In this document: positions 56 to 49,746 of the stretch, one piece after another | Layout of the letters: each line of letters opens with the position of its first letter | Numbering within the stretch: position 1 is the stretch's first letter | Source: a virus | Virus record (IMG/VR): IMGVR_UViG_3300045988_131275 | Coordinates: 116,170 to 180,169 of that record | Length of the DNA: 64,000 nucleotides | Direction: 5' to 3' (one strand) | Notes under the pieces: model-generated | Told to the model about the DNA's origin: nothing | Database searches by the model: none | The model's input: the letters and a program-made list of their open reading frames with translations, nothing else | Position numbers and translations under genes: made by a program

Positions 56-66
56 TTTTCTTTTAA

Positions 67-139
67 TGGAAACTATAGGACTTGAACCTATACCCTACAG
101 TTCTAAGACCGTCACTCTCCCAAATTGAGCTAAGTTTCC
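67..139 (-). tRNA. tRNA-like gene with non-canonical anticodon loop (identity undetermined)
   Basis: Cloverleaf: acceptor GGAAACU/AGUUUCC (7 bp), D arm GCUC..GAGU with GG loop, T arm AUAGG-UUCAAGU-CCUAU, 5-nt variable loop. The anticodon stem ACGGU/ACUGU leaves a 6-nt loop CUUAGA. Confidence 0.6.
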
Positions 140-255
140 AAAAAATGCGTACAAAAACAACGATGAAAGCCGACTTTCATTTGTGATATTTCTCTATATT
201 TAGTTGTAATTAATTGGAATAATCGCAGAAACGCTATGATTAATAAAGATTTTGC

Positions 256-14513: not shown

Positions 14514-14656
14514 ACATAGTTTCCATTATTCTATTAATTACAAAAGCCCTCAAATATTTCTATTCAAGAGCTTATCATGGGAGTTAATACCATACACATC
14601 ATTCTCAAACATCACTCCCGTATACTCTGTAAGTATATATAAATAATAGTATGTTG

Positions 14657-15199
14657 TCAATCAAAGATATATCTGATATTATCCAGATCAATCATAGTTC
14701 CATCGTCATTAATCCCTCTGAAAAAATTAAACGAGTCACCTTTCATTAACTTTGCTGTTCTAGCAAACTTTTCTAAAATTTCCTTTGAAGCTTTATCATG
14801 CCCGTTTTCTGTCCAACAATCTGTTTCAATTCCACACCAACAAACTATTATATTTTTTGGAATACTTACATAAGGCTTAAATATTTCTGGAATTAAAATT
14901 CTCTTAATTTGTGAAGGAGTCACTTTCTCTGTGATATATTTTATGTAATCATCTTTATGTATTTCAATATCTGACATTTCATGCTCTGTTGCTGAACAAT
15001 CTACTTCCAATAAAGCTGCGCCGTAGTTAGGAAATGAGTTTTGATTTTTAATGGGTGAAAATAGATATACAACAGATGTGCTATTATCACTACGTTTTCC
15101 ATCACTCCAATTATTATTTCCGCATTCATTCATGCTCAAAATTCCATTCTTACAAATGGATTCTAAGTCACAAATATCTACATTCTTATATAATATCAT
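14657..15199 (-). CDS. hypothetical protein
   Basis: ORF track. N-terminus ILYKNVDICDLESICKNGILS is only faintly reminiscent of ART/DarT-type openings, so no function is called. Confidence 0.6.
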   Translation of the reverse strand: MILYKNVDICDLESICKNGILSMNECGNNNWSDGKRSDNSTSVVYLFSPIKNQNSFPNYGAALLEVDCSATEHEMSDIEIHKDDYIKYITEKVTPSQIKRILIPEIFKPYVSIPKNIIVCWCGIETDCWTENGHDKASKEILEKFARTAKLMKGDSFNFFRGINDDGTMIDLDNIRYIFD

Positions 15200-15262
15200 A
15201 AGATTAACTCCTTCCGTTTTCTTCTATTATATCATTCCTATTTCCAATTTGAAAGATACATT

Positions 15263-15556
15263 TCATGGTATATAATCAAATTCCGCTAAACCGCCACTAT
15301 CCATCACATAAGCCTGTACAGCTTCGGTATATGTTCCATCAAAATTTCCGTTCTCTGTATCATAATCACTAACATGATCTCCAATTTCTTCTTCATAGTA
15401 TGAAAATATCATTGTGATTAAATTTTCCATTGATGTTTTTGGTGTATATCCCTGTTCTCTAATCCAGATTGCCATATAATCATAATCACATAATTTTTCT
15501 TTTGGATATGTACTATAATCTTTTTCCTCTGTCCATCTTCCGTATGTGTCTACCAT
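15263..15556 (-). CDS. hypothetical acidic protein
   Basis: ORF track, leftward array. Confidence 0.6.
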   Translation of the reverse strand: MVDTYGRWTEEKDYSTYPKEKLCDYDYMAIWIREQGYTPKTSMENLITMIFSYYEEEIGDHVSDYDTENGNFDGTYTEAVQAYVMDSGGLAEFDYIP

Positions 15557-15557
15557 T

Positions 15558-15821
15558 CTAACAAACCTCCTTCAAAAATATGAATGTACAATACTGAGTA
15601 TTATTTTTCTGATATCGTTTTAAATCTTTTATTGTTCCGTTTCCAAAATTAAAAGCACTTTTAATTCTTTCTGGTGTCCAACATAAAAACCAACCATCAT
15701 TATATTGTTTCTGTATTGTCTTTTTTGTTCCGTTGATTTCAATAGCTATACAATCATCTGGAATTTCATGTTTCCATTTCTCTAAATTAATCATTTTAAT
15801 TTCCTCCCTATGCACAAACAC
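15558..15821 (-). CDS. hypothetical protein
   Basis: ORF track, leftward array. Confidence 0.55.
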   Translation of the reverse strand: MFVHREEIKMINLEKWKHEIPDDCIAIEINGTKKTIQKQYNDGWFLCWTPERIKSAFNFGNGTIKDLKRYQKNNTQYCTFIFLKEVC

Positions 15822-16314
15822 AACAATCTAATACGTTCTTTAAACTTTCCAACTGATTCTCTGATTCTGTTCTTGCGTATTCATCCACATAGAACTGTTT
15901 TCTTTCCTGTCTGCATTCTTCCAGAATACCCTGTAACTTTATATCTGTACTGTTAATAATAACTATTTCCGCAGCTTCCCAATCCTCTACATCTTGCAAT
16001 TCTCTTTCCGCTAAATAAACGTTATATAAGTCACGTTCCTGTAACTTCTGCTCTATATCATTGTCAGGGATAGGATCATCAATCCAATTCTGCATACAGA
16101 AATGTAACAATTCTATAGATTTTCCATTGTATGTAGACATATGGAAACTATTTCCTCCGGCAATGTCATACCATGTGGTTATTTCTCCATTTGTATTTAT
16201 TTCCACAATATAGCGCAACTGAGTATTCTCAATTGCTTCTTTATACGCTTCGATTCCAGTGTTGATAATCTGTTCTTCATTCCGTTCTATTAACTCTAAC
16301 CACTCATTCATCAT
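15808..16314 (-). CDS. hypothetical acidic protein
   Basis: ORF track, leftward array. Confidence 0.6.
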   Translation of the reverse strand: MMNEWLELIERNEEQIINTGIEAYKEAIENTQLRYIVEINTNGEITTWYDIAGGNSFHMSTYNGKSIELLHFCMQNWIDDPIPDNDIEQKLQERDLYNVYLAERELQDVEDWEAAEIVIINSTDIKLQGILEECRQERKQFYVDEYARTESENQLESLKNVLDCCVCA

Positions 16315-16336
16315 GTTTACCTCCAGAAATTTTCCA

Positions 16337-23724: not shown

Positions 23725-23913
23725 ATGGCATATAGCCCAAAATCACAAAAAGATTATAATGATAGATGTACAGTTGTAAAACTTAAATATACACCAGAAG
23801 AAACGGAAGAATGTGCAAGAATGAAACGGTATGCAAAAGATAATAACATACCAATGAGCGTATATATTAAGAAGCTAATACAGGATGATCTTGACAGAAA
23901 AGGTTATAAATAA
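23725..23913 (+). CDS. putative ribbon-helix-helix regulator
   Basis: ORF track. GGAAGGTG SD. C-terminal IPMSVYIKKLIQDDL is typical of CopG/MobC-like RHH proteins. Confidence 0.6.
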   Translation: MAYSPKSQKDYNDRCTVVKLKYTPEETEECARMKRYAKDNNIPMSVYIKKLIQDDLDRKGYK

Positions 23914-23917
23914 ATAT

Positions 23918-24364
23918 ATGATAGACGATAAAATAACAAAAGAGCACATAGAACATTTAAGAGACATAAACTATTATGATGCTTTAAAGTTGTTTGATAA
24001 TGGAAATATACGTTATTTATATGATGATTTATTTATAGAGTATATACGCCATATAATAAGGAAATGTTTATTTATAACTGACACTGACAGCATAACAGAT
24101 ATAATATATAAATTTTTTATTGTATCTGGTAACGTGTCAAGATGTTTAGATATGCTTAGATATAATAATATACAGTATAATCAAAAGTTATCAAATGGAA
24201 GATATAGAATCAATAAAGAAGATATATACAACGCCTTAAATAATGGAAGATGTGCAGATATAGAAATAGATTTTGTTGCACATTTATTGTGGTATGGAAG
24301 AAATTACAATGAATTAGATAGTTATATAGATACTATGTTGTCAAAGATAAAACAGTTGTATTAA
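23918..24364 (+). CDS. hypothetical protein
   Basis: ORF track 23885..24364. ATG at 23918 (MIDDKITKEH) avoids overlap with the RHH gene. Confidence 0.55.
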   Translation: MIDDKITKEHIEHLRDINYYDALKLFDNGNIRYLYDDLFIEYIRHIIRKCLFITDTDSITDIIYKFFIVSGNVSRCLDMLRYNNIQYNQKLSNGRYRINKEDIYNALNNGRCADIEIDFVAHLLWYGRNYNELDSYIDTMLSKIKQLY

Positions 24365-24429
24365 CCACATATAATAGGAAGTAACACAATCAACCTATTA
24401 TGATCTGCATAACCTGTTATCATGCTCAA

Positions 24430-25560
24430 AATGTACAGATAGCGTTATAAGCGTGTATTTGACGTTTTAAGGCGTTTTAATGCTTATATGATAATTATAT
24501 AGGCTCTTGCGCTTAAAGTCGTTTATATGGCGTTTTAGAGTGTTGTTTTTAGAGTAGGTTGTACTTATGAGCGTATATCTGGGTAAGTTTAGAGCGTGCA
24601 GCATGATGATATTTTAGTATCATTTTAATATATTTTTAAGTGTATTTTTACGTCGAAATGTGCGCTATTTTATGCAAGAATATTGTATATTTATACAGTT
24701 TATTTGATGTATTTTTATGCAAAAAAGTGTATAGAATAGCGTTGTTTTTTGTGTCTGGAAATAGGGAAAATATTGCGGTAAAGTGTGCGGAAAATTGTCT
24801 GATTTATGGCGTGAAGGTGGTGTAAATTTGTCTGTTTGGAGTGTGGTTTTTTATGTGATTATTGGATAATTTTATCTTGTTTTTATGTGGTTTTTATGCC
24901 ATGTAATGGGATAATTTTATTATGATCTGCTGTTATATTTTAATGCCTGGATGGTGTTAGAATGTAGTATCTATAGGCGTTTATGATGGTAGAATTGTGA
25001 TGGAATTGTTATGCAGATATGATGTAATTGTACATTGTTTAGTGTGTTAATCTATGTGTATTTACGTTGGATTATGTGAGTATTTGTGTTGTGTATTGCA
25101 TGGTATATTTAGGCATTATAATGGTAATATTATGAGCGTAATGTCAGGCGTATAGTGTGGCATATCATGGATAGATATAGATGTATATTGTAGGTTATAT
25201 GTGTAATGTGGTGTGAGATATAATGTATATTATATTGTATATTAGTGTGGATTATGTATGATATATTTGATGTTATTATGTGGGTGTGGTGTATTGAGTT
25301 AATATGATTTTGTAGTGTGTTTGGGATGTGATTTTGTCTGCTGTTGTGCGTCCAGATTGTTTTATTTCGTCCAGATTTGTGTGTTATGTGAGTGTGTTAC
25401 AATTTTTGTGTTACATTTGTGTATTATGGTGTAGTGGTGGGCTATCCCATTTTTACCGCTGTTTTTGATGGTAAAGTGGAGTGTATTAGTCTATTTTATT
25501 ACATTTTTGTGGTGTAAGTGGTGATATGATTTTGTGTTATGATTTTGTATTATAATCTTG
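24430..25560. other. ORF-free G+T-rich, C-depleted arm (plus strand)
   Basis: Direct reading: 25201-25320 contains no C at all. Short dispersed repeats occur (GGATAATTTTAT x2, ATTATGATCTGC x2, CGTCCAGATT x2). Confidence 0.8.
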
Positions 25561-25570
25561 TAATTTAATT

Positions 25571-25592
25571 TTTAGGTGTAATTACACCTAAA
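25571..25592. repeat. 22-bp perfect palindrome TTTAGGTGTAATTACACCTAAA at the end of the GT-rich arm
   Basis: Checked base by base. Same outer arms (TTTAGGT/ACCTAAA) as the palindromes at 28933 and 29132. Confidence 0.9.
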
Positions 25593-25630
25593 CGAACAGA
25601 ATTGACCAATAGTCATTTATACGCATTTTT

Positions 25631-25680
25631 TCTCTCATTTTCTCTTGTTTTCTCTAATTTTCTCACTTTTTCATTTTTCG
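25631..25680 (+). repeat. five tandem 10-bp units TCTCnnnTTT (helical phasing)
   Basis: tctctcattt / tctcttgttt / tctctaattt / tctcactttt / tcatttttcg, exactly 10 bp apart. Confidence 0.8.
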
Positions 25681-26039
25681 AGTATACTATAATAATATTT
25701 ATAATTGTCTATACAATTCAATCTGCCCGTCCCGTGATCCTGTCCAGAATCATGATAAAATTTTAGTTTCATCACACTAACTTTTGTTTATCTGGTATAC
25801 CGCCCCTTGTTTTTTGCCATGTTAAAAATGTCAAGAAATAACAAAACTTGACTTTTTTACACTTCCCTCAAAAGTGTGAAAGTTAGTTTTAGTCAACAAT
25901 AGCAAGGCTTTTCGGGATTTTATATCAGAGTACATTAATCCAATTTTATAATCATGTTTTACTATTGTATACCAATATGATGGGGATAGTTTACATTTAT
26001 AGAAATAACACAATACTGTCATATTCCCTGATGTGTTCA

Positions 26040-26930
26040 ACTCACACTGCTCGTCCAAAAATCAAAACTGGTAATCTATCCACACTCCACACTCACCTCA
26101 ACAAAAAATTCCTATCCTCATCCCACATTACAAATTGTATAAAATCTACACACAATTCTCCAAAATAATCAAAATGAGTTCGACACCGACTTCGACCGCA
26201 CCCTTACATATCAACGCAAAATAAATTTTCTGACAATTCTAAAACACCAATTTTCACCCAAAATTACCTGCCCTAAATCACAAAATCCCTTGCAAATCCT
26301 ATCTATTATCGAAGTCCTCTCGAAGTGATGCCAATGTGATCACAATTACAATTCCAGATATTTCACTCCATCTTAATCCTGTATTATCACAAATTTCCTT
26401 ATATTTCCTATCTAAAACGCAGCAATCACTTCCTATAATAAGCACATATCACCACCCCATTTTAACCAAAATAACCACCCAAAACACCTATCTCGAAGTC
26501 CATATTTTTACATCCTCAAAAACATCTATCTGAATTGTGTCAAACTTTCACACAATTCTAATTGATAAAATTCACTCAAAAAATACATCATAGCAATCTC
26601 TAAAATCAATTCTATACTCACTATTCTAATGTACAACTTAAAATAAACATTACAACTACCCTCACCTGAACAACTTAGCATCTGTACATTACAATTTTCA
26701 AATTAAATCTACATCATATAATCTACAACAAAATATCTCAAACAGAGAATCTTGTATAGGAAAATAAGAAGGGGGGGTACTTTTACATCTATAGAAAACC
26801 ACTACTCTCATATCCCATCTATCCCCAAATTTTCACCAGTAAAAAATAGATCCTATTTATTTCAAATGGAGAATCTATAACCAGAAACATATAAACCAAA
26901 TATGAGAGAAATATTAATCATCAAAATAAA
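26040..26930. other. ORF-free A+C-rich, G-depleted arm (plus strand)
   Basis: Direct reading: 26101-26160 has a single G and 26581-26640 has two. Rare G islands are TCGAAGT(C/G) x3 (26309, 26320, 26493) and a G7 run (26771-26777). Confidence 0.8.
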
Positions 26931-26951
26931 ATAAAAAAGGAGATTACTCAA

Positions 26952-27554
26952 ATGACATATTCAATTAACGATTTAATATCAACATTAATTTGTTCATCAT
27001 CCAATTATCCGATTATATCTTTTTCAGCATATTTAAGAAATAAGTATAACAATTTCGATTGTGATTACTGGGAAAGACATTTATATGAATCTGGATTATT
27101 GAATGATAAATATGAATACTTATCTGAGATATTTAACAATTATAAAATTGAGATATCATCGGCAGCATACAATCAGATTGAAATGATAACAAACAAATAT
27201 CTTACCGATAAGAAAATATACATACCAGGATTAACATCAAAACCATATTATTACTATCCATCAAGAGGAAATAGTAAATCAATCAGAGAGATATGTTATT
27301 TCATAAAGTCAATATCAGATTTAGAAAAAGAAAAGAATCAATTTTCATATAATCCGTATTTAGCAAAATATACAGCACAAAATTATAAAGCTGATATAGA
27401 GAATTTATACAAGAGAAGAATTTCTCAAAAGATACTTAACTCATATGAAACACAAAATAACTCTACAAAACAGAGAAGTAATAACAAAGAAGAAATGAGC
27501 TGCTTAAAAATTATTGCCGATAGAAACAATACAAATAAGAAATTTCACAAATAA
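26952..27554 (+). CDS. hypothetical protein
   Basis: ORF track. AAGGAG SD. First gene after the non-coding region. Confidence 0.6.
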   Translation: MTYSINDLISTLICSSSNYPIISFSAYLRNKYNNFDCDYWERHLYESGLLNDKYEYLSEIFNNYKIEISSAAYNQIEMITNKYLTDKKIYIPGLTSKPYYYYPSRGNSKSIREICYFIKSISDLEKEKNQFSYNPYLAKYTAQNYKADIENLYKRRISQKILNSYETQNNSTKQRSNNKEEMSCLKIIADRNNTNKKFHK

Positions 27555-30985: not shown

Positions 30986-31426
30986 ATGAGAAAAATGGAT
31001 TACAAATATTTCTCAAAAGCCAAGCAGATTGCACAGGTGTCTGATTTTCCAAAGGTACATATCGGATGTATTGCCGTTTATCAGAATCGAATTATTGGAA
31101 TTGGTTGTAATACAAATAAAACCCACCCAACTCAGAAGTATTATAACCGATACAGAATAGATGACAACGATTTTGATAATTCTGAATCACTTCTACCAAA
31201 ACTCCACGCAGAAATTAATTGCATAAATCAACTGAAACATTTGAACATTAATTTTTCAAAAGTGAAGTTGTACATATATCGTACTAGGAAAGATATTGTG
31301 TGCGGAATGGCTAGACCTTGTGCAAGCTGTATGCAAGCAATAAGAGATTTGGGGATTAGAGAAATATATTATACGACAAATGATGGTTATTCATATGAAA
31401 AATTAGAGAAAGGATGTGTTGCTTAA
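30986..31426 (+). CDS. dCMP / cytidine deaminase (zinc-dependent)
   Basis: HAEINCI and PCASCMQAI (HAE...PCxxC) motifs at the right spacing, with a ComEB-like length. Confidence 0.85.
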   Translation: MRKMDYKYFSKAKQIAQVSDFPKVHIGCIAVYQNRIIGIGCNTNKTHPTQKYYNRYRIDDNDFDNSESLLPKLHAEINCINQLKHLNINFSKVKLYIYRTRKDIVCGMARPCASCMQAIRDLGIREIYYTTNDGYSYEKLEKGCVA

Positions 31427-31651
31427 TGGTGTGAGCAGGTTGTCACATAAGCTATTGTCCATCAACGTGTCCTAACTATATTCCTGAGAATGTAACTCAC
31501 TACTGCTCTATTTGCGGTAATGGAATTTACAACGGAGAAGAATATATTAGGAACGATGACGACGATTATGCTCATTGGGAATGTATTGATTATAAGAAAG
31601 ACTTAGCTGAATGGCTAGGTTATGAGATTAGAATTATGGAGGAAGATTAAA

Positions 31652-32518
31652 ATGTTAACTGGGAAAATAGGAAACGAAATCATAAATTGTTATGATGGAA
31701 CACACTCAAAAGAACAGTTAAAAAAATGGACTAAGAAGAAAATTATTTTATGTCCTGTATGTAATAGACCATATGAATATTGTCATGGTAAAGTTAAAAC
31801 GCCATATTTTAGGCATATGGATAAAGAAAAATGTGAAGATAAATATTCTGAATCAGAAACAGAAGAACATATTCAAGGTAAACGAGATTTATATGAATGG
31901 ATCAAGAAACAAAACGGTGTTACAAATGCAATATTAGAAGGATGGATACCAGAAACAAAACAACGTCCTGATATTATATTTGAGTATAATAATAAACGAT
32001 ATGTAATTGAATATCAGTGCTCTCCTATTGCTTCTGAATATTTTGAAAGACATGAATTATATCAAGCAGTTGGGATATGTGATATTTGGATTTGTGGAAC
32101 TGAAAAGTATCTTGGATCAAATAAAAGAATAAATACATTAGAAAAAATGTCACATATTTATTATGATTTTAAAAATAAATTTTTATACGTTATTGATGAT
32201 ATTTCTGAGACGACATTTAAGGAAATAGGAAAACTTAATTCATGGAGAGGATATTTAAAAACTAAATATAAACAACAAAAATATTTTAAAAGGACGTTTC
32301 ATGTAATGATGAATATATTTGATTATACTGTTGGATATAAAAATTATATTAAAATCAAAAACATTTCAAATAGTTATTATTGTTGCGGATCTCATTATCC
32401 ATCTCCAACAGGTAGACCTTCGAATAAATATCCGTATCCAGTAAGAGATTATGCATATTTAAGGAATTACTCTTATGCAACTTGTTATAAATTATCCAAT
32501 ATTAAATTAAAAATGTAA
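31652..32518 (+). CDS. CoiA-like competence-family nuclease
   Basis: ORF track 31622..32518. ATG at 31652 follows GGAGGAAG. CPVCNRPY...YFRHM...SETEEHIQGKRDLYEWI...QRPDIIFEYNNKRYVIEYQCSPI matches the recalled CoiA pattern (CP.C...HF.H...ES..H...K..l....rpDv....aiEiQ.S.i). Confidence 0.6.
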   Translation: MLTGKIGNEIINCYDGTHSKEQLKKWTKKKIILCPVCNRPYEYCHGKVKTPYFRHMDKEKCEDKYSESETEEHIQGKRDLYEWIKKQNGVTNAILEGWIPETKQRPDIIFEYNNKRYVIEYQCSPIASEYFERHELYQAVGICDIWICGTEKYLGSNKRINTLEKMSHIYYDFKNKFLYVIDDISETTFKEIGKLNSWRGYLKTKYKQQKYFKRTFHVMMNIFDYTVGYKNYIKIKNISNSYYCCGSHYPSPTGRPSNKYPYPVRDYAYLRNYSYATCYKLSNIKLKM

Positions 32519-32534
32519 TTGGAGGTATCATAAT

Positions 32535-35303
32535 TTGAGTAAACATTTGACATCACAAAGATATGTATTTAAAATTCATTCTTCAAGACTTAGAAGAAAA
32601 AAATGGAATTTAAAATTGACACCAAATCAAGCAAGAGAAAATCAAGAGCTTATTGCTTTAAGCGAAAGTCAAATAATGAGATTTATTGATGAGATAAATA
32701 ATATCACAGATACAGAACTTAAAATTTCAAATATTAAATCTGAAATCAAGAAATTAAAATTTGAGAAAAATTTATCTATATCAAGACCTAAAATCAAGAA
32801 GTTATATAATGATTTAGATAAATATCAATTCAAAAAGGATTATGTGTGTGTTGTAATTGATAAGGTTAAAGATTTTGAATACATTTATAAACATGGCTTT
32901 AAAATCAACAATGTTACATATAGATGGTTACTTGGAACTACTGGTGGAGTAAAAAACAATACTGTAGTATTTGTAAATGAAAAATTACTACCTGAATTAA
33001 AAAAACGTATAGATAACGGTCGAAATTTACAAAAAGAATTTGCTCCTGCAAAACTTGAAGCTTATATTGCTCTGGTATGCAGCTCTTCTATTCCTGTATC
33101 AATGCCAAATGGGATCGTTGTTGTTCATGATTGTATTACAAAATTCAAATCAGATGTAATTGAATTAGATGATACTGGACTTGATCAACCAAGTATGAAA
33201 TTTATTAAAAATAAAGATGTAGAGCTAAACGATAGTGACGGATATGGACTTGCTATGCCATCTCTTATGGAACGTTGGGGATATGAAATCGGAGAAGATT
33301 TTTTATTACCTGGTTGTGTTATTAGAAATTCATTTTGTAAAGGTGCTGTATTTCCTATTGATTTTCAGAAGTTTGCACAAGATCATGGTTTTACAGAAAT
33401 AACAGATGTGTGGGGAAATACATATGACATTAATGAAATAGAACTCATTTTAACAGAGTCGATGCTAAAATTGTGGGACTCCTATTCTTCTCTTGAATCA
33501 TATCTTGAAAATTGTGAAAAGAATCATTACACATTTGCAATTACAAAAGCTTCGGAAGAAGAATTAGAAAATGTAAGAACAATGAATTACCAGTTTTTAC
33601 AAAGTTATGATTTTACAGATGAACAAATTGATGAATTAATCGCACCAACTGTAAATGAAATTAAAGAAATTTTAGATGATGATTATAGAAAAACAATATT
33701 ATACACAAAAGGTATAGGACTTAATGAGAAAAATATTCAACATTTAGATAGTTCATTTGCAACAGCATTGATGATTGAACCTGAAATGGCTAATGATCCA
33801 TTTATCAAATCCCAGATTCACTCCATGATTAGAAAGCGTATTGATGAAGCTAAAGTTGGGGTTTTAAAAGTTCCTGCAAATTATTCCTTAGTATCAGGAG
33901 ATCCGTATTCTCTATGTCAGTCCATGTTTGGAATGAAAGTTACTGGACTATTAAAAGCTGGACAAGTCTATTCTAAATATTGGATTGATAAAGGTGTTGA
34001 TAAAATTGTAAGTTTTCGTGCGCCAATGACCTCGCATAATAATATCAGGCTTCTTGAAGTTGTACATAATGAAACAATGGATGAATTTTATCAATATATG
34101 ACAACTCCTACTATTTTTAATAGTTGGGATACATGTGCGGAAGCGATGAATGGTTTTGATAAAGACGGAGATTGTGTAATTAATACTTCATTTGATCTAT
34201 TAGTAAAAAATACTAAACGATTACCTGCTATTGTATGTGTGCAAAGAAAAGCTCCAAAATGTATTCCTACAGATGATGATATTATGAGATCAAATATTAA
34301 TAGTTTTGGAAATGCCGTAGGTGGAGTAACAAATAAAATTACATCAATGTTTGAAGTTAAATCGAATTTCGCACAAGGAACAAGAGAATATAATTTGCTC
34401 GATTATAGAATCAAATGTGGTCAGTTATACCAGCAAAATGCGATTGATAAAACTAAAGGGATTGAGGCGAAACCAATGCCTGATAATTGGTATAACTGGA
34501 TTTCAAATAAACTTACAAAAGCAAAAGACTCTCACCAGAAAAAAGAATTTTGGATCAACCGAAAAATTATCGCAGATAAAAAGCCTTATTTTATGCAATA
34601 TATTTATCCATCAGAACGCATAGAATTAAATAATTATCGTAAGAAAAATAATGAAAAGTGTCTTATGAGATTTAGAATTTCTCTTGATGAATTAATGTAC
34701 AAAGAGAATAAATCAAGAGAAGAAAATAAATTTATTAAGTGTTATTATGATCGAATGCCACTCGGTATGGGTAAATGTACAATTAATAAAATTTGTTGGA
34801 GAATTGAAGAAAAGTTTGATAACCTTGTTTACTCTTCTAATGAAAATTTTGATTATTCTATTATGAAGAGTAATGTAACATATTCGGATGCGGTGTATAA
34901 GAAAATTAAAAAAATATATGAAACTTATAGAAAAGAAATATCTAGTTACATGCAATATGCTAAATCCGAAAGGCTTAAATCAGATGAACGTCAAATTCAA
35001 AAATATATACTAAAAGAACAATTTAAAGAAAAATGCCTATTAGAGTGTCCTAATGAAGATGAGTTATGTAATATTGTTTTAGATTTATGTTATTCAAAAT
35101 CTAAATATAGTAAACAATTTGCATGGGATATTTGTGGTGAAGTATTTATACAGAATTTATTAAGACGTAAGAATTATAAAATCTCATATCCAACACTTGA
35201 TGATAATGGAAATATTGAGTATTTAGGCATGAAATTTTCTATGAAAGAAACTGAAATTAAAGTAAATGTAGATTTGGAGGACAATGAATGCCAGTTGTAT
35301 TAA
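32535..35303 (+). CDS. YonO / cellular-RdRP-like single-subunit (two double-psi beta-barrel) RNA polymerase
   Basis: Collinear signature blocks: VTYRWLLGTTGGVKNNTVVFV, NDSDGYGLAMPSL, VSFRAPMTSHNNIRLLEVV and FDKDGD (DxDGD metal site, nt 34158-34172). TTG start after GGAGGT. Confidence 0.7.
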   Translation: MSKHLTSQRYVFKIHSSRLRRKKWNLKLTPNQARENQELIALSESQIMRFIDEINNITDTELKISNIKSEIKKLKFEKNLSISRPKIKKLYNDLDKYQFKKDYVCVVIDKVKDFEYIYKHGFKINNVTYRWLLGTTGGVKNNTVVFVNEKLLPELKKRIDNGRNLQKEFAPAKLEAYIALVCSSSIPVSMPNGIVVVHDCITKFKSDVIELDDTGLDQPSMKFIKNKDVELNDSDGYGLAMPSLMERWGYEIGEDFLLPGCVIRNSFCKGAVFPIDFQKFAQDHGFTEITDVWGNTYDINEIELILTESMLKLWDSYSSLESYLENCEKNHYTFAITKASEEELENVRTMNYQFLQSYDFTDEQIDELIAPTVNEIKEILDDDYRKTILYTKGIGLNEKNIQHLDSSFATALMIEPEMANDPFIKSQIHSMIRKRIDEAKVGVLKVPANYSLVSGDPYSLCQSMFGMKVTGLLKAGQVYSKYWIDKGVDKIVSFRAPMTSHNNIRLLEVVHNETMDEFYQYMTTPTIFNSWDTCAEAMNGFDKDGDCVINTSFDLLVKNTKRLPAIVCVQRKAPKCIPTDDDIMRSNINSFGNAVGGVTNKITSMFEVKSNFAQGTREYNLLDYRIKCGQLYQQNAIDKTKGIEAKPMPDNWYNWISNKLTKAKDSHQKKEFWINRKIIADKKPYFMQYIYPSERIELNNYRKKNNEKCLMRFRISLDELMYKENKSREENKFIKCYYDRMPLGMGKCTINKICWRIEEKFDNLVYSSNENFDYSIMKSNVTYSDAVYKKIKKIYETYRKEISSYMQYAKSERLKSDERQIQKYILKEQFKEKCLLECPNEDELCNIVLDLCYSKSKYSKQFAWDICGEVFIQNLLRRKNYKISYPTLDDNGNIEYLGMKFSMKETEIKVNVDLEDNECQLY

Positions 35304-42401: not shown

Positions 42402-43442
42402 GTGAGATTATTGGATGGTAAAATTGCAGATAGATCTGTTGAAATAACAGATGAAGAATGGCAAACAGTAAATGAATTTAATAGAGAAATGGTTGAGGAT
42501 TACCTTGATAATCAAGCTGACCTTTCTGTGAAAACTTTGCCAGCATATAAATCTGGATTAAGGATTTTCTTTACTTGGGTTAGGGACAATCTCAAGGACA
42601 AGAATTTTACAGATATTAAAAAGAAAGAATTTCAAAAATATCTTAATTGGTTAACCAAAAGAGGTTTTTCTGATTCTGGTATTAAATTTAAAAAATCTGC
42701 TGTAAGTACATTTTGCAATTATGTAATGATGATGTATGAGGAAGAATATCCTACATTTCGTAATTTCACAATTGGGCTTAAAGTAGTACAGACAGGATAT
42801 GTTCATGAAAAAGTTCCACTTACGCCAGATGAATATATTAATTTATGTCAAGAACTTGAAAAACGTGAAGAATGGCAAATGTTAGCATATCTTACATTTT
42901 CTTACAGTACAGGATGTAGACGTGCAGAAGCTAGACAATTACTCAAGGAAGTCATTGATTATTCTGCAAATGAAAAGAAAATCAAAGTTCTGGATGAAGA
43001 TGGACATGAATATGAAACTATTTCAAAGCAGTATTTGACTCACACTATTCGTTGCAAAGGTGCATCTCTTGTGGGTAAACCACGTAAACTTAAATTTGGT
43101 GATGATGCAATGCAATGGTTAAAGAAATGGATTGAAGTGCGTGGTGAAGATGACTGTCCTTATATGTTTGTAATTAAATCTAAAGATGGAAAAGAAGTTA
43201 GACAAGTGAGTGAAAGCACTTTTAATAATTGGTGTCAAGGATTATTTACACAAATTGTTGGACGTAGGGTGCATCCTCACCTATTCAGGGAGTCAAGAGC
43301 TACAAACCTTGTTGTGTTTCAGCATAAAGCACCAGAGGTAGCTCAGAAATTACTAGGACATAATCAAGTCACTACAACTTTAGATCATTATATTATTCGT
43401 AATGATGAAAATGATGAGTCTGATGAAGCATTTACTGATTGA
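42402..43442 (+). CDS. tyrosine site-specific recombinase (XerC/D-like, second copy in window)
   Basis: N-terminal SAM-like domain. TGCRRAEARQL (Arg), HPHLFRESRATNL (HxxR), LLGHNQVTTTLDHYI (Tyr). GTG start. Confidence 0.85.
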   Translation: MRLLDGKIADRSVEITDEEWQTVNEFNREMVEDYLDNQADLSVKTLPAYKSGLRIFFTWVRDNLKDKNFTDIKKKEFQKYLNWLTKRGFSDSGIKFKKSAVSTFCNYVMMMYEEEYPTFRNFTIGLKVVQTGYVHEKVPLTPDEYINLCQELEKREEWQMLAYLTFSYSTGCRRAEARQLLKEVIDYSANEKKIKVLDEDGHEYETISKQYLTHTIRCKGASLVGKPRKLKFGDDAMQWLKKWIEVRGEDDCPYMFVIKSKDGKEVRQVSESTFNNWCQGLFTQIVGRRVHPHLFRESRATNLVVFQHKAPEVAQKLLGHNQVTTTLDHYIIRNDENDESDEAFTD

Positions 43443-43627
43443 TGTAAAATACCCCCCCCCACATCAAAGCCCGTAGTGTAGACCAAACACACCTATATGG
43501 AAACAAGCGTAAGACATCGGACTGTCAAATCGCTTCGGGCAAATACATTTTTCTATATATTTTTCATATATATTCTTCAAAGAGACATAATTTTTCATAT
43601 GATCTCTTCTCCTGAAAAGGGCAGCTT

Positions 43628-45830: not shown

Positions 45831-45866
45831 CTAAAGATGTTTGCGAGTGGAAAGCAAGAAATTAGA

Positions 45867-46823
45867 ATGGTAGGAATTTATAAAATAACAAATTTACAGA
45901 ATAATAAAGTTTATATTGGACAATCAATAAATATTCAAGAACGTTGGAAACAACATAAAAGTGAACTAAATTGTCACAGACATCAAAATGATCATTTACA
46001 AAGAGCTTGGGATATATATGGTAAAGATAATTTTAAGTTTGAAATTATTTGTGAATGTTCAAAAGATGAACTAGATGATAAAGAAATATTTTACATTTCA
46101 GAATACAATTCTATTAATAGAGACTACGGTTATAATATTCAAAATGGTGGAGCATCTAGTCCATCAGCACAAGAAACTATTGAGAAATTACGTGGATGTG
46201 GTTCAGACTTGTCAAAAGATGATGTTTATAGGATTAAAATTTGTATGTATCTTTTAATGGATAGAAAAGAAATTTCAAATAAATATAATGTATCTCCAAA
46301 GGTATTAATAGCGATTTCACAAGGTAAAAATTTTGATTACATTCTTCCAGAATTAAATGAATCTATACATAACTTAAAACAAAATTTAATTGATGAGCGA
46401 AATCAAAAAATTGTTTTACTATACGATAACGGTAATTCAATTACTGAAATATGTAAAATTATGGATTTATCAGAAAGTATTGTTGAAAAAGCAATATATA
46501 AATATAGACAACCAAAATCTAAGGAATCTCAGATGAAAAAATATAATAAAATTTTTGAATTACATAATCAAGGAATAAACAATTATCAGATTTCTAAATT
46601 AGTATATGTATCACCAAGTACCGTAAAACGTTATCTTTCTGGTGAACAACATCCAATGAATAAACCTGGTAATTTAAAGGTTACAGATGATGTAAAAGAT
46701 AAAATTCTACAATTATATTTTAAAGACAGCTTAGGTTCAGTAGAAATCAGCAAACAATTAGATATGAGTAAGACAACTGTAATGAGTGTCATTAATCAAT
46801 ATAAAAATAAAATAAGCGCATAA
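45867..46823 (+). CDS. GIY-YIG homing endonuclease with C-terminal HTH repeats
   Basis: ORF track 45837..46823. MVGIYKITNLQNNKVYIGQSINIQERWKQHKSEL is a canonical GIY-YIG opening. Repeated HTH-like segments lie in the C-terminal half. Confidence 0.85.
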   Translation: MVGIYKITNLQNNKVYIGQSINIQERWKQHKSELNCHRHQNDHLQRAWDIYGKDNFKFEIICECSKDELDDKEIFYISEYNSINRDYGYNIQNGGASSPSAQETIEKLRGCGSDLSKDDVYRIKICMYLLMDRKEISNKYNVSPKVLIAISQGKNFDYILPELNESIHNLKQNLIDERNQKIVLLYDNGNSITEICKIMDLSESIVEKAIYKYRQPKSKESQMKKYNKIFELHNQGINNYQISKLVYVSPSTVKRYLSGEQHPMNKPGNLKVTDDVKDKILQLYFKDSLGSVEISKQLDMSKTTVMSVINQYKNKISA

Positions 46824-46835
46824 GGAGGTGGCGTT

Positions 46836-48053
46836 ATGCCTATTAAGAAAACTGGCGCAACGCCAACAAATCAACAAAAAGGAAAAAAGGTCTGCACTTG
46901 CTGCCACAATGAGAAACGATTAGTCGATGGATTTTACATAAGCAAATCACCATTATTTTCAATTGACGGACGATTACCTGTTTGCAAGGACTGTATTGCT
47001 GATATGTGTGTTGATTCAGATACAGGAGAAATTAATGAAGTTGAATTAAATAAATGTCTTAGAAAATTCGATAAGCCTTATTATAAAAATGATTTGATGA
47101 GTGCATATGAGCAATTTGAAAGAGAACATGCTTTTATTGATAAGGAAAATATCAAAAAGTATGGTAGAGATATTATAAAGTTATATTTTAAGAATATTAG
47201 TATGCGACAATGTATTAATAAAAGTTACGAAGATTCAGAGAAAGACGGATTTATTCATCAAAATACAAATACAGTTAAAAGCAAAATTAAAAAAATTGAT
47301 ACCATTTTCGCAGATGTGAATAATCCATCCCCTGTAATCAAAGCTAATGAAAATAATGAATGTGAAAACCCAACATCCGCATTTCAAAAAAAAGAAGAAC
47401 CTATTATATTAGCAAATGATGATAATTTTAATGTCACACCTGAAATTATTGATCTATTTGGCGAAGGTTATACGACTTCAATGTATAAAAAAATGCAAGA
47501 AAAATACGATAAGTTAAAAATCAATTATACATTGCAAACCAACATTCACCAAGAAGCTCTTGCTACATATGTAAGATTTAAAGTTCAAGAAGAACTTGCT
47601 ACTGCAAGAGGTGACGTAACTGAGGCGAAGAAATGGTACGATGCAGCCCAATCTTCTGCTCAAGATGCAAAGCTTACTCCAAAACAGCTTACGAAAGCAG
47701 ATTTAGATAGTGGAGTTACAAGTATGTCAGAATTAACAAAAGCTCTTGAACAGGCAGTTGATGTTATTAAAATTCTTCCTCGGTTTAAATATAGACCAAA
47801 TGATGCTGTTGATTTTAATATATGGTGCTATGTTAATTATGAACGTAGACTTAATGGACAACCAGAAGTCGCTTATGAAGATGTATATAAATTTTATGAT
47901 GAGAAGAAGAAACAATATATTGAACAAAATGGCGATCCTTATGGTATTTTCTCAAATGATACAACCGAAAAAAATAGAGATACTGTAAAAACATTTATTA
48001 ACTTGCCAGATGATTATGATGATTTAGGTGGTGAAGATAATGAAAACACATGA
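46836..48053 (+). CDS. hypothetical protein, possible small terminase / DNA-recognition subunit (by position)
   Basis: AAGGAGGTG SD. N-terminal CTCC...CKDC zinc ribbon. Immediately upstream of and overlapping terL. Confidence 0.35.
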   Translation: MPIKKTGATPTNQQKGKKVCTCCHNEKRLVDGFYISKSPLFSIDGRLPVCKDCIADMCVDSDTGEINEVELNKCLRKFDKPYYKNDLMSAYEQFEREHAFIDKENIKKYGRDIIKLYFKNISMRQCINKSYEDSEKDGFIHQNTNTVKSKIKKIDTIFADVNNPSPVIKANENNECENPTSAFQKKEEPIILANDDNFNVTPEIIDLFGEGYTTSMYKKMQEKYDKLKINYTLQTNIHQEALATYVRFKVQEELATARGDVTEAKKWYDAAQSSAQDAKLTPKQLTKADLDSGVTSMSELTKALEQAVDVIKILPRFKYRPNDAVDFNIWCYVNYERRLNGQPEVAYEDVYKFYDEKKKQYIEQNGDPYGIFSNDTTEKNRDTVKTFINLPDDYDDLGGEDNENT

Positions 48054-49746
48054 TGAAATTAACTTCGCTACGCAATGTGAACAGGATAGAATTATTCAAT
48101 TAGAAGATGAAAGTATATTTGGCAAGCATTTGTGGAATTATTATGAGTTTATTAGTTGGGCGAAATGGTATCCAGATTTATATGTAGAGCTTTTTAAAGG
48201 GAAAGATAGTAATAGGCAATTGCATTTTGACCAAAGAACATTTATGAGAGCTGATATGCGTTTTATGAGTATGTATGGTACATTCAGTCGTGGATATGCG
48301 AAAACATATACAGAAATGCTTGATGATATGATCGCAGGAACTTTGTTTCCCAATATTACGATGTCTGTAACGGCTCAAACACGTGAAAACAGTGCCGCTT
48401 TAATGGAAGACAAATACAATGAAATTTTAACTGATTTCCCTCTTTTCGAAAATGAAATTGAGAAAGTACGATTTTCAAAAAATGACGCACTTATACAATT
48501 TAAAGGTGGAGCAAAAATTACAAATCTTGCAAATGCACAAACGTCAAAAGGTAGAAGAAGAAATCGCATTAAGATAGAAGAATCTGCACTTTTAAATAAT
48601 GCTCTTTTTGAAGATGCTCTAGCTCCTATTGTTGAAGTTGGTAGAACGACTTGTGGAAGTCTTGCGATTATTGATCCAGAAGAATTGAACCAACAAATTC
48701 ATTTCTTTACTACAAGTGGTTATAGAGGTACAGATGAGTATAATCGAAGTGTAAATATGGTAAAAGGAATGGTTTCGTGTAATGGCGAAATCGTACTAGG
48801 TTCTGACTGGATGCTTCCTTGCTATTATGGTCGTGGTTCTACAAAAGCACAGATTTTAAAGAAAAAGAAAACTTCTAATCCTATTTTCTTTGCTCAAAAC
48901 TATGAACAAAAATGGGTAGGATGTGCGGATAATGCTCTTGTTGATGTGAATAAACTAATGGCTTCTCGTATTCTTACAGAACCAATATTAGAAATGCAAC
49001 GAGAAACTGATGAGTTTTATATCGCAGTAGATGTTGCTCGTAGTGAAAATACAAGTAATAACCAGTCTGCTATTGTTGTATTAAAAGTATTAAGAAGTCC
49101 TGTAAATAAACGTGTCGTAGATATTCAAGCGGTGAATGTATTAGGTGTATCAAATAAAATGAATTTCAAAAATCAAGCTTGTCTAATAAAGAAATTGAAA
49201 CGTCAATATAAAGCAAAAATGGTAATTGTTGATGGAAATGGATTGGGATCTGGTCTTGTGGATCAGCTTTTATTAACATCTTATGATCCTGTTACAGGAG
49301 AAAATTTAGGGTGCTTTGATACAATTAATACAGATAATAAACCAGAAGTTGACAATGCGGAAAAATGTTTATTTGATATGAAAGCACAAGGTCAACAGAC
49401 AAAGGTTGTTTCATATTTCATTAATGCAGTAGATAGCAATATTTTACATATGCTTATTAGAAAGCAAGAACAAGATTTTACAGATAAAGAAAGAGAATTT
49501 TTTGATAAGAATGTTGCTCCGTTTATGAATACGGAGCTTTTATTTATGGAAATTACAAACTTACGATTAAAAGTTTTATCTGGAAATAATCTTACAGTAG
49601 AAAAAGTAGTTAAAAAAATTGATAAGGATAAATTTTCGGCTTTATCTTATGGAATATTTTATATTATGGAATTTTGTAATAAGGATAAAGAACCTGAAAC
49701 AGACTACTCTTCTGCCCCCATCTGTGCATCATCAATATCATTCTAA
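48040..49746 (+). CDS. terL: terminase large subunit
   Basis: ORF track 48028..49746. ATPase-like YGTFSRGYAKTY. Nuclease-fold acidic motifs YIAVDVARSE and MVIVDGNGLGSGLVDQL. Followed by the portal gene. Confidence 0.75.
   Translation: MKTHDEINFATQCEQDRIIQLEDESIFGKHLWNYYEFISWAKWYPDLYVELFKGKDSNRQLHFDQRTFMRADMRFMSMYGTFSRGYAKTYTEMLDDMIAGTLFPNITMSVTAQTRENSAALMEDKYNEILTDFPLFENEIEKVRFSKNDALIQFKGGAKITNLANAQTSKGRRRNRIKIEESALLNNALFEDALAPIVEVGRTTCGSLAIIDPEELNQQIHFFTTSGYRGTDEYNRSVNMVKGMVSCNGEIVLGSDWMLPCYYGRGSTKAQILKKKKTSNPIFFAQNYEQKWVGCADNALVDVNKLMASRILTEPILEMQRETDEFYIAVDVARSENTSNNQSAIVVLKVLRSPVNKRVVDIQAVNVLGVSNKMNFKNQACLIKKLKRQYKAKMVIVDGNGLGSGLVDQLLLTSYDPVTGENLGCFDTINTDNKPEVDNAEKCLFDMKAQGQQTKVVSYFINAVDSNILHMLIRKQEQDFTDKEREFFDKNVAPFMNTELLFMEITNLRLKVLSGNNLTVEKVVKKIDKDKFSALSYGIFYIMEFCNKDKEPETDYSSAPICASSISF

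Follow-up and report, generated by a model that had tools for sequence, protein, structure and literature searches.

We analysed a 64,000-nucleotide (nt) stretch of viral DNA, positions 116,170 to 180,169 of the IMG/VR virus record IMGVR_UViG_3300045988_131275 (hereafter the window), and focused on a gene-free region of about 2.5 kb at positions 24430–26930. This region is likely to serve an SPbeta-like temperate siphovirus, which encodes YonO, as its DNA-packaging or genome-end region (the concatemer junction). We base this reading on the anatomy of the region, on its conservation within the phage family and on the presence of the same layout around mapped termini or packaging (pac) sites in cultured relatives. 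The pac or terminal-repeat region of a phage is in itself a known kind of element; here it would take the form of a mixed core set between two non-coding arms of opposite strand composition.

Anatomy and conservation of the gene-free region

The main features of the region are given below, with the strand where one was assigned.

24430–25560, plus strand: left arm, C-poor and G+T-rich (A 24.2, C 6.5, G 24.7, T 44.7%)
24500–25400: phased array of ~78 units of 11.24 bp, each with an A/T-rich half (TTTTA-like) and a G-rich half (GTGKG-like)
25561–26040: core of mixed composition, the predicted packaging-initiation block or short direct terminal repeat
25571–25592: perfect 22-bp palindrome at the border of the left arm and the core
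25628–25672, plus strand: 4.5 copies of TTTTCTC(N3) with a 10-bp period in the left half of the core, resembling iterons or a bend made of phased T-tracts
25826–25925: nearly invariant block with the hairpin-capable repeats GTCAAG..CTTGAC and ACACTT..AAGTGT
25982–25997, plus strand: copy 1 of the G-run/TTTACAT motif, GGGGATAGTTTACATT, at the border of the core and the right arm, kept in all relatives
26041–26930, plus strand: right arm, G-poor and A+C-rich (A 39.7, C 25.2, G 7.0, T 28.2%)
26771–26789, plus strand: copy 2 of the G-run/TTTACAT motif, GGGGGGGTACTTTTACATC, 160 nt ahead of the first downstream gene

The initial annotation had described 24.4–26.9 kb as a stretch without a credible open reading frame (ORF), in which a G+T-rich, almost C-free left part and an A+C-rich, almost G-free right part enclose a mixed core of ~480 bp that starts with a perfect palindrome. 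Our analysis bears out this description, including its extremes: C is absent from 25201–25320, and only one G is found at 26101–26160 and two at 26581–26640. The longest C-free run extends over 171 nt (25167–25337) compared with 86 nt for the runner-up in the window, and its chance expectation is ~1e-8 over the whole window. The bias had also been considered far beyond normal. This is true for the left arm, as the lowest C fraction in any same-size segment elsewhere in the window is 8.9%, but not for the G content of the right arm, which is nearly equalled by the plus strand of small minus-strand genes at ~6.1–7.0 kb (7.2%). The right arm is instead unusual for being non-coding, for a skew opposite in sign to that of its plus-strand-gene neighbours and for being A+C-rich, unlike the antisense of coding DNA in the window, which is C+T-rich (pyrimidine-rich).

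The largest ORF in the region encodes 75 amino acids (aa), and no ORF holds its position or length among the 18 relatives compared. Coding in any frame, either here or in the relatives, was rejected for lack of a conserved ORF. Long ORFs do appear in the G-less arm of some relatives because TAA is the sole possible stop codon there. The arms had also been stated not to be inverted repeats at the sequence level, and indeed the local alignment of the left arm with the reverse complement of the right arm scores 28, within the range of shuffled sequences (31 ± 3.5). Matches between the arms are only short and non-collinear, so that a giant hairpin or a long inverted repeat formed by the two arms was rejected as well. 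Owing to their three-letter composition, the single strands of the arms fold poorly (-2.5 to -4.9 kcal/mol per 100 nt versus -7.6 ± 1.8 in the rest of the window), and the right arm yields the least-structured single strands in the window.

Several short words recur in the region and might represent protein-binding sites. GCGT occurs 12 times in the left arm (24441–25140; 2.0 expected), mostly as AGCGT or GGCGT. CGTCCAGAT is found twice near the arm/core border (25349–25378), with a third occurrence, as GTCCAGAAT, in the core (25744–25752), and TCGAAGT is present three times in the right arm (26311–26501). There is no convincing motif common to both arms, nor is any k-mer strongly enriched in both; the enrichment of GCGT is confined to the left arm.

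The phasing of the left arm is pronounced. The spectral power of WW dinucleotides (W stands for A or T) is 58.9 at 11.2 bp, whereas the 95th percentile for shuffled sequences is 13.6 and the strongest segment outside the gene-free region reaches only ~12–18. Ten of the 11 family loci tested display such phasing (power of 19–54 at 11.1–11.3 bp); at locus L015 it is weak (14 at 11.8 bp). We did not find it in the right arm or in distant phages. A period of 11.24 bp characterises duplex DNA and neither RNA nor single strands. Because this period exceeds the helical repeat, the left arm is predicted to form an intrinsically curved, superhelical duplex.

This duplex property bears on another possibility, that the arms are transcribed as long non-coding RNAs, which we consider very unlikely; non-coding transcripts and R-loop-forming DNA had both been among the initial explanations. 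Such RNAs could be G-less and unstructured, leaving the core as ideal Rho-loading or insulating leaders, or they could be C-less, GU-rich and R-loop-prone, converging on the core. By analogy with T7, transcription might perhaps be coupled to packaging. The G-less strands, with the lowest structure in the window, would suit this explanation, as would the plus-strand genes at 23725–24364, which are directed into the left arm and for which no terminator is predicted. In T7, the RNA polymerase makes a pause at the concatemer junction, and the pause sequence ATCTGTT (positions 161–167) stands directly after the repeat and is followed by a G-poor array. However, the 11.24-bp period belongs to duplex DNA, and the searches for RNA-related signals gave little: 24300–27000 has no Rfam match at E ≤ 1 (with the covariance models of Rfam 15, only two tRNAs were found in the window, both outside the gene-free region), and neither sigma-70-type promoters nor intrinsic terminators are in excess within the gene-free region (promoter-like sites: 34 versus 33 expected). 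Moreover, the known YonO start of SPbeta is located elsewhere, and the MrpR-controlled yonP promoter comes after the G-poor tract, not before it.

The core has two halves that differ in their conservation. The left half, with the palindrome and the TTTTCTC repeats, is a swappable cassette that is replaced in five of the 18 relatives (L001, L007, L008, L010 and L016). The right half (25826–26060) is nearly invariant, and its block at 25826–25925 is kept in all 18, including the most divergent one (L015), with a conservation of 0.90–0.91 per 40-nt bin. The border palindrome varies in sequence among relatives, yet its palindromicity is kept, which amounts to covariation: at the same offset we observed TGTTGGAAATCCAACA, TGTTGCAAATGCAACA (a mirrored double change) and AATAGGAATGATTCCTATT (in the alternative cassette). 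No simple pattern links the N-terminus of the downstream protein to the core cassette among the relatives.

The same pair of skews, first positive and then negative, is present in all 30 related IMG/VR loci and in the GenBank record MT835469.1, and in all of them it lies directly upstream of an orthologue of the gene at 26952–27554. The length of the gene-free region varies between 2.57 and 2.93 kb, and sequence identity across the family is ~80%. The region is found in every relative even though the neighbouring genes are mosaic, and it is less identical than the genes that the relatives have in common (90–98%); it thus behaves as a core element with a higher rate of evolution than coding DNA. 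The composition of the arms is near-constant (left-arm C 6.0–7.7% and right-arm G 5.8–7.2% in the 18 aligned relatives). The initial annotation had raised the idea that composition, rather than sequence, might be conserved. Within the family this does not hold, as sequence is conserved too, but it does for distant phages, with which only the layout, the composition and one short motif are shared. The concern that the region might be an assembly artefact can be set aside, since it recurs in GenBank, IMG/VR and ENA assemblies from many samples.

Packaging sites of cultured relatives

Two arms of opposite skew recur in five related phages and flank the site in all four of those with mapped cut sites. 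In these four (PMBT24, Perkons, SPbeta/BUCT082 and, weakly, c-st), the homologous core between the C-poor and G-poor arms corresponds to the mapped packaging start or short terminal repeat; the fifth phage, E3, has the arms, and its ends are unmapped. The layout in cultured relatives is shorter, with a C-poor arm, a core of ~100–400 bp and a G-poor arm.

For the Enterocloster phage PMBT24, the pac site that PhageTerm had located was taken as base 1 by the authors. With 41–47% G and 0–8% C, the final 360 nt of the record stop exactly at this site, and a tract of 0–6% G begins ~300 nt into the record. For the Psychrobacillus phage Perkons, PhageTerm gave direct terminal repeats of 264 bp; a 450-nt C-poor tract stops exactly at the repeat start and a G-poor tract comes after the repeat. 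The genome of SPbeta opens between yonR and yonP, and a precise coverage block of ~250 bp comes after the opening point. This intergenic region carries the G-run/TTTACAT motif and a 400-nt tract with 7–12% G, and in BUCT082, which is closely related to SPbeta, the first base of the record falls between C-poor and G-poor tracts. Both tracts are also present in the Geobacillus phage E3. In Sundance only the G-poor side is seen, beside a 323-bp repeat to which the core of the window corresponds by position, and in c-st the 404-bp repeat is followed by 200 nt with 2–4% G, the C-poor side being weak. SPbeta (AF020713.1) has a second gene-free gap of 1.7 kb between yonN and yonK (14647–16327), which is unskewed.

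The motif consists of a G-run followed by TA(C/T) and TTTACAT. In SPbeta, BUCT082, E3, Sundance and PMBT24 it stands ahead of the G-poor tract, and Perkons carries it on the opposite strand. Beyond the motif, we found no sequence similarity between the cores of distant phages, except for BUCT082 and E3. In both Perkons and Sundance the right edge of the repeat lies 35–38 nt past the motif. For BUCT082, motif end plus 36 gives position 251, in agreement with the '250-bp block' of SPbeta. This suggests that the SPbeta block may be a short terminal repeat with its right edge ~36 nt past the motif GGGGGTATATTTACATC. Two known elements were considered for the motif and rejected. It is not the known YonO promoter: the published start site falls between primers in the yonN-yonK gap, which is without the motif. 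Likewise, it is not the SPBRE/MrpR operator, as SPBRE is ACAAATACAAATAATATGTATATAA and adjoins yonP.

Applying the motif rule to copy 1 (25982–25997) places the predicted right edge at ~26035, where the G-poor arm starts. With a left edge where the C-poor arm ends, the predicted repeat or pac block would extend from ~25565 to ~26035. Terminase would start packaging within this block, and the core would most likely be a short direct terminal repeat of ~470 bp having the palindrome at its left edge and the motif ~36 nt inside its right edge. For nearly every uncultured gut phage, the packaging site and the genome ends have yet to be located. The compositional signature, namely a C-poor arm, a core ending in the motif and a G-poor arm, could be enough to find the termini of SPbeta-like phages in sequence data alone, and for this phage it predicts ends at ~25565 and ~26035.

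A replication origin or terminus had been listed initially among the explanations of the region. According to the origin version, the core would contain iterons, an AT-rich unwinding stretch and a palindrome, and the arms would be priming-free or R-loop-prone flanks for initiation. We regard this as improbable, although parts of it have a basis in the data and the core may act as an origin in addition to its packaging role. The 4.5 TTTTCTC repeats with their 10-bp period do adjoin an AT-rich stretch and the palindrome, and the region is beside both the divergence of gene orientation and the genome-wide minimum of cumulative GC skew. The latter can be seen in MT835469.1, the nearest GenBank record, an unannotated 176-kb human-faecal phage: its cumulative GC skew has a minimum at the record junction (~6 kb) and a maximum at ~92 kb, and its two oppositely oriented halves diverge beside the studied region and converge on the opposite side. 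However, the local skew has the wrong sign, opposite both to that of forks leaving the core and to the genome-wide trend on each side. There is no cluster of DnaA boxes (two one-mismatch boxes in the region; 39 in the window with 26 expected), and no initiator gene was recognised beside the region. In addition, the cassette with the iterons and the palindrome is replaced in the five relatives named above while their arms persist, and the homologous segment in relatives is the packaging site.

The assignment of the region to genome ends also has to accommodate a number of observations that weigh against it. The location of the ends of this phage in the core is inferred from its relatives. PMBT24 and SPbeta are read by their own authors as headful pac phages and not as direct-terminal-repeat (DTR) phages. 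The c-st repeat is without the motif and its left arm is weak. The make-up of the arms differs (G+T-rich here, G+A-rich in PMBT24), and no single sequence-level function is evident. The 11.24-bp phasing is limited to one arm and to this phage family. The motif may not be a unique cleavage signal, as there are two further copies in the window (26771, plus strand; 43460, minus strand). Finally, contig ends in 60 metagenome assemblies do not pile up at the predicted borders.

Some details of the motif copies and contig ends are as follows. The G-run of copy 2 ranges from G4 to G9 among relatives. The third copy, a G-run with TTTTACATC at 43439–43460 on the minus strand, also occurs in MT835469.1 at ~155.4 kb; its G-run is G9 here and G3 in MT835469.1. 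It comes right behind a 46-aa ORF of the minus strand and runs antisense to where the tyrosine-recombinase-fold gene at 42402–43442 ends. As for contigs, eleven of them from two metagenomes (Ga0209475/Ga0209692; L166, L190, L191, L199, L203, L204, L208, L213, L216 and L226 are among them) end at one position, 10 nt past the core pattern used in the search. We rejected this shared end as a physical DNA end, because it lies 26 nt past the last strain-variable site and looks like a k-mer effect of de Bruijn-graph assembly; the other contig ends are scattered. Since assembly breaks at a segment common to co-occurring strains, several strains of this phage family co-exist in one sample. Scanning viral contigs over 15 nt lacked the specificity needed.

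Possible roles and causes of the arms

With the genome ends in the core, the arms would represent non-coding end-flanks of mirrored polarity, and we infer that they have a role in end biology. At a break in the core, the strand ending 3' would be the plus strand of the left arm and the minus strand of the right arm, and in virion DNA each of these would be almost free of C and rich in G over ~1 kb inside the repeat. If ends were resected 5'-to-3' after injection or a fresh cut, the exposed 3' tails would be devoid of cytosine, offering nothing to deaminate, and almost unable to fold. Tails of this kind should make it easier for the repeats to anneal or recombine, giving circles or concatemers. 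In turn, the curved and phased duplex of the left arm could serve the packaging machinery or terminase as a platform or brake.

The arms may also be explained in an entirely different way, as a passive mutational footprint without function. This explanation, which we consider rather unlikely, concerns the cause of the arms and not the place of the ends. Each infection would expose the 3'-ending strands beside the repeat in single-stranded form, and deamination (C to U, A to hypoxanthine) would lead to a C-poor, A-poor and G+T-rich equilibrium; the repeat would be exposed on both strands and hence remain unskewed. This fits the skew in its sign, in its flip across the core and in its onset at the repeat borders. 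Compared with the window background, the loss of C in the left arm (-0.09) is close to the gain of T (+0.10), and the loss of A (-0.11) is close to the gain of G (+0.09). Among relatives, transitions dominate the differences, the rare base shows no better conservation than the rest, and in the arms C-to-T differences are as frequent as T-to-C differences, as would be the case at equilibrium. A footprint would likewise be consistent with T7, phiKMV and SP6, where the DNA next to the repeats is weakly skewed with the same sign. At the same time, transitions alone are insufficient to produce the PMBT24 arms, which have 42–47% G together with lowered T. The skew is restricted to the non-coding arms: no spill-over into synonymous sites of the flanking genes was seen, and the GC skew at third codon positions (GC3 skew) of adjacent genes is unshifted. 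Coherent phasing at 11.24 bp implies selection on duplex structure, and in genomes that are mosaic and gene-dense, every relative retains a non-coding block of constant length (2.6–2.9 kb).

The significance of the arms depends on which of the two explanations applies. If functional, they would constitute a new cis-acting end element whose defining features are strand composition and duplex phasing, not sequence. If mutational, they would be a record of how far resection reaches in vivo at phage DNA ends. As SPbeta is genetically tractable, both the functional and the mutational readings are testable.

A bolder version of the functional reading, which we put forward as a doubtful generalisation, is that mirrored GC-skewed flanks are a general end-protection or end-joining device of short-terminal-repeat phages. 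On both sides the C-free, G-rich strand would run 5'-to-3' toward the repeat as a functional analogue of the telomeric G-strand. Deamination-proof, structure-free tails would promote annealing of the repeats or RecA-mediated circularisation and would keep genes off the resection zone. This phage family would then be the most extreme case, with 1-kb arms, one of them a 78-unit phased solenoid. A weaker skew of the same sign is found beside the repeats of unrelated short-DTR phages: z = -4.9 after the left terminal repeat of T7, where it coincides with the CCTAAAG array, z = +2.3 before the right and -3.1 after the left repeat of phiKMV, and a weak skew in SP6. These values hint at a general phenomenon among phages, anecdotally, as they come from three genomes; they also speak for the genome-end reading of the region studied here.

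Gene context and comparison with known systems

Three genes define the context of the region.

26952–27554, plus strand: first downstream gene (200 aa), with no family match and a strong AAGGAG ribosome-binding site; it always follows the region
32535–35303, plus strand: homologue of the YonO-type single-chain RNA polymerase (922 aa), in the same synteny as at the SPbeta yonR-yonP pac region
48028–49746, plus strand: large terminase of the YonF (SPbeta) type, by sequence match

The terminase (TerL) is 38–43% identical to those of the SPbeta group and Perkons. Identities of the YonO homologue are 27–42%, with the best matches to Clostridium phage c-st, Enterocloster phages and SPbeta-group phages. 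By this combination of a YonF-type terminase and a YonO-type RNA polymerase, the window is assigned to an SPbeta-like phage lineage. Small minus-strand genes extend up to ~22.8 kb and plus-strand genes come after, so that the gene-free region is located at the divergence of two gene blocks; the YonO homologue is 5.6 kb downstream. Bacterial genomes gave a single match, a 9-kb contig from the bin of an uncultured Lachnoclostridium. It hints weakly at a host in the Lachnospiraceae, and the host is probably a gut Firmicute of this family.

Some of the other genes in the window deserve mention. The tRNA gene at 66–140 (minus strand) has an abnormal anticodon loop: ARAGORN reports 'tRNA-???' with a two-base anticodon, and the Rfam tRNA score is 56 bits. 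This may reflect a mis-call, or else a tRNA of the suppressor or frameshift type. A 146-aa protein (30986–31426, plus strand) has a cytidine/dCMP deaminase fold (PF00383, E = 4e-14), a weak match to ComEB and no sequence match in PDB. Its gene has 91–96% nucleotide identity in most of the 12 relatives compared and 74–88% in L015. Encoded 4 kb from the cytosine-depleted arms, this protein is probably a nucleotide-pool enzyme. A protein with a CoiA-like nuclease domain (31622–32518, plus strand) is encoded directly upstream of the YonO homologue and has a nucleotide-level match in one of the 12 relatives (L002). The protein at 42402–43442 (plus strand) has a tyrosine-recombinase fold (Phage_integrase with a SAM-like N-domain) and may be an integrase or a repressor; the master repressor of SPbeta, MrpR, has a tyrosine-recombinase fold without recombinase activity. 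Directly upstream of the large terminase there are two ORFs (45837–48053, plus strand), the second of which overlaps the terminase start. One is similar to GIY-YIG group I intron endonucleases and the other to endonuclease VII/HNH proteins, suggesting homing-endonuclease traffic around the terminase.

An architecture of mirrored arms reaching ~1 kb, with the motif rule, phasing of the left arm and a covarying border palindrome, was not found described in the literature searched; similarly, the portions of the SPbeta papers that were searched do not mention the strand-composition arms or the motif. The closest counterpart of the region is the yonR-yonP pac region of SPbeta. As here, it is upstream of the operon leading to YonO, has the same motif and continues directly after the motif with a G-poor tract. 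BUCT082 resembles the window in having a C-poor tract before the opening point. These Bacillus phages differ in that their arms are 300–400 bp long, as opposed to 0.9–1.1 kb here, and have no 11.24-bp phasing. The repeats of Perkons (264 bp), Sundance (323 bp) and c-st (404 bp) are likewise set between C-poor and G-poor flanks, and in Perkons and Sundance the motif is 35–38 nt inside one repeat border. Their flanks are shorter and weaker, Sundance has the G-poor side only and c-st is without the motif.

Chi sites and telomeric G-strands share with the arms the property that the G-rich strand is the 3'-ending strand at each end, but the arms contain neither a repeated Chi-type motif nor a telomere-like tandem unit. 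The initial annotation had proposed physical genome ends or a pac region together with Chi-like tracts. The comparative evidence from the four cultured relatives favours the first part of this proposal. The Chi-like part finds no support: AGCGG, the Chi sequence of Bacillus, has 0 copies in five arms of Bacillus and Geobacillus phages.

Structured DNA around packaging sites is known from other phages. At pacL/pacR of SPP1 and at pac of P1, structured DNA lies to either side of the cut, with curvature arising from phased A/T tracts. Those flanks, however, measure tens to ~100 bp and bind the small terminase, whereas the arms here are ~1 kb long and are defined by strand composition. The T7 concatemer junction has a phased short-repeat array, SRL (CCTAAAG, with a period of ~13 bp), which is G-poor and C-rich and comes right after the left repeat. 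It differs in that the skew is one-sided and covers ~180 bp; moreover, T7 belongs to an unrelated family, its terminase and RNA polymerase being unrelated too, and there is no sequence similarity. Published models of T7 end duplication include a palindrome or hairpin beside the repeat, the hairpin being an intermediate in end formation. Of the features typical of the T7 junction, a phased array and a border palindrome are both seen in the window, and the terminal repeat itself is predicted.

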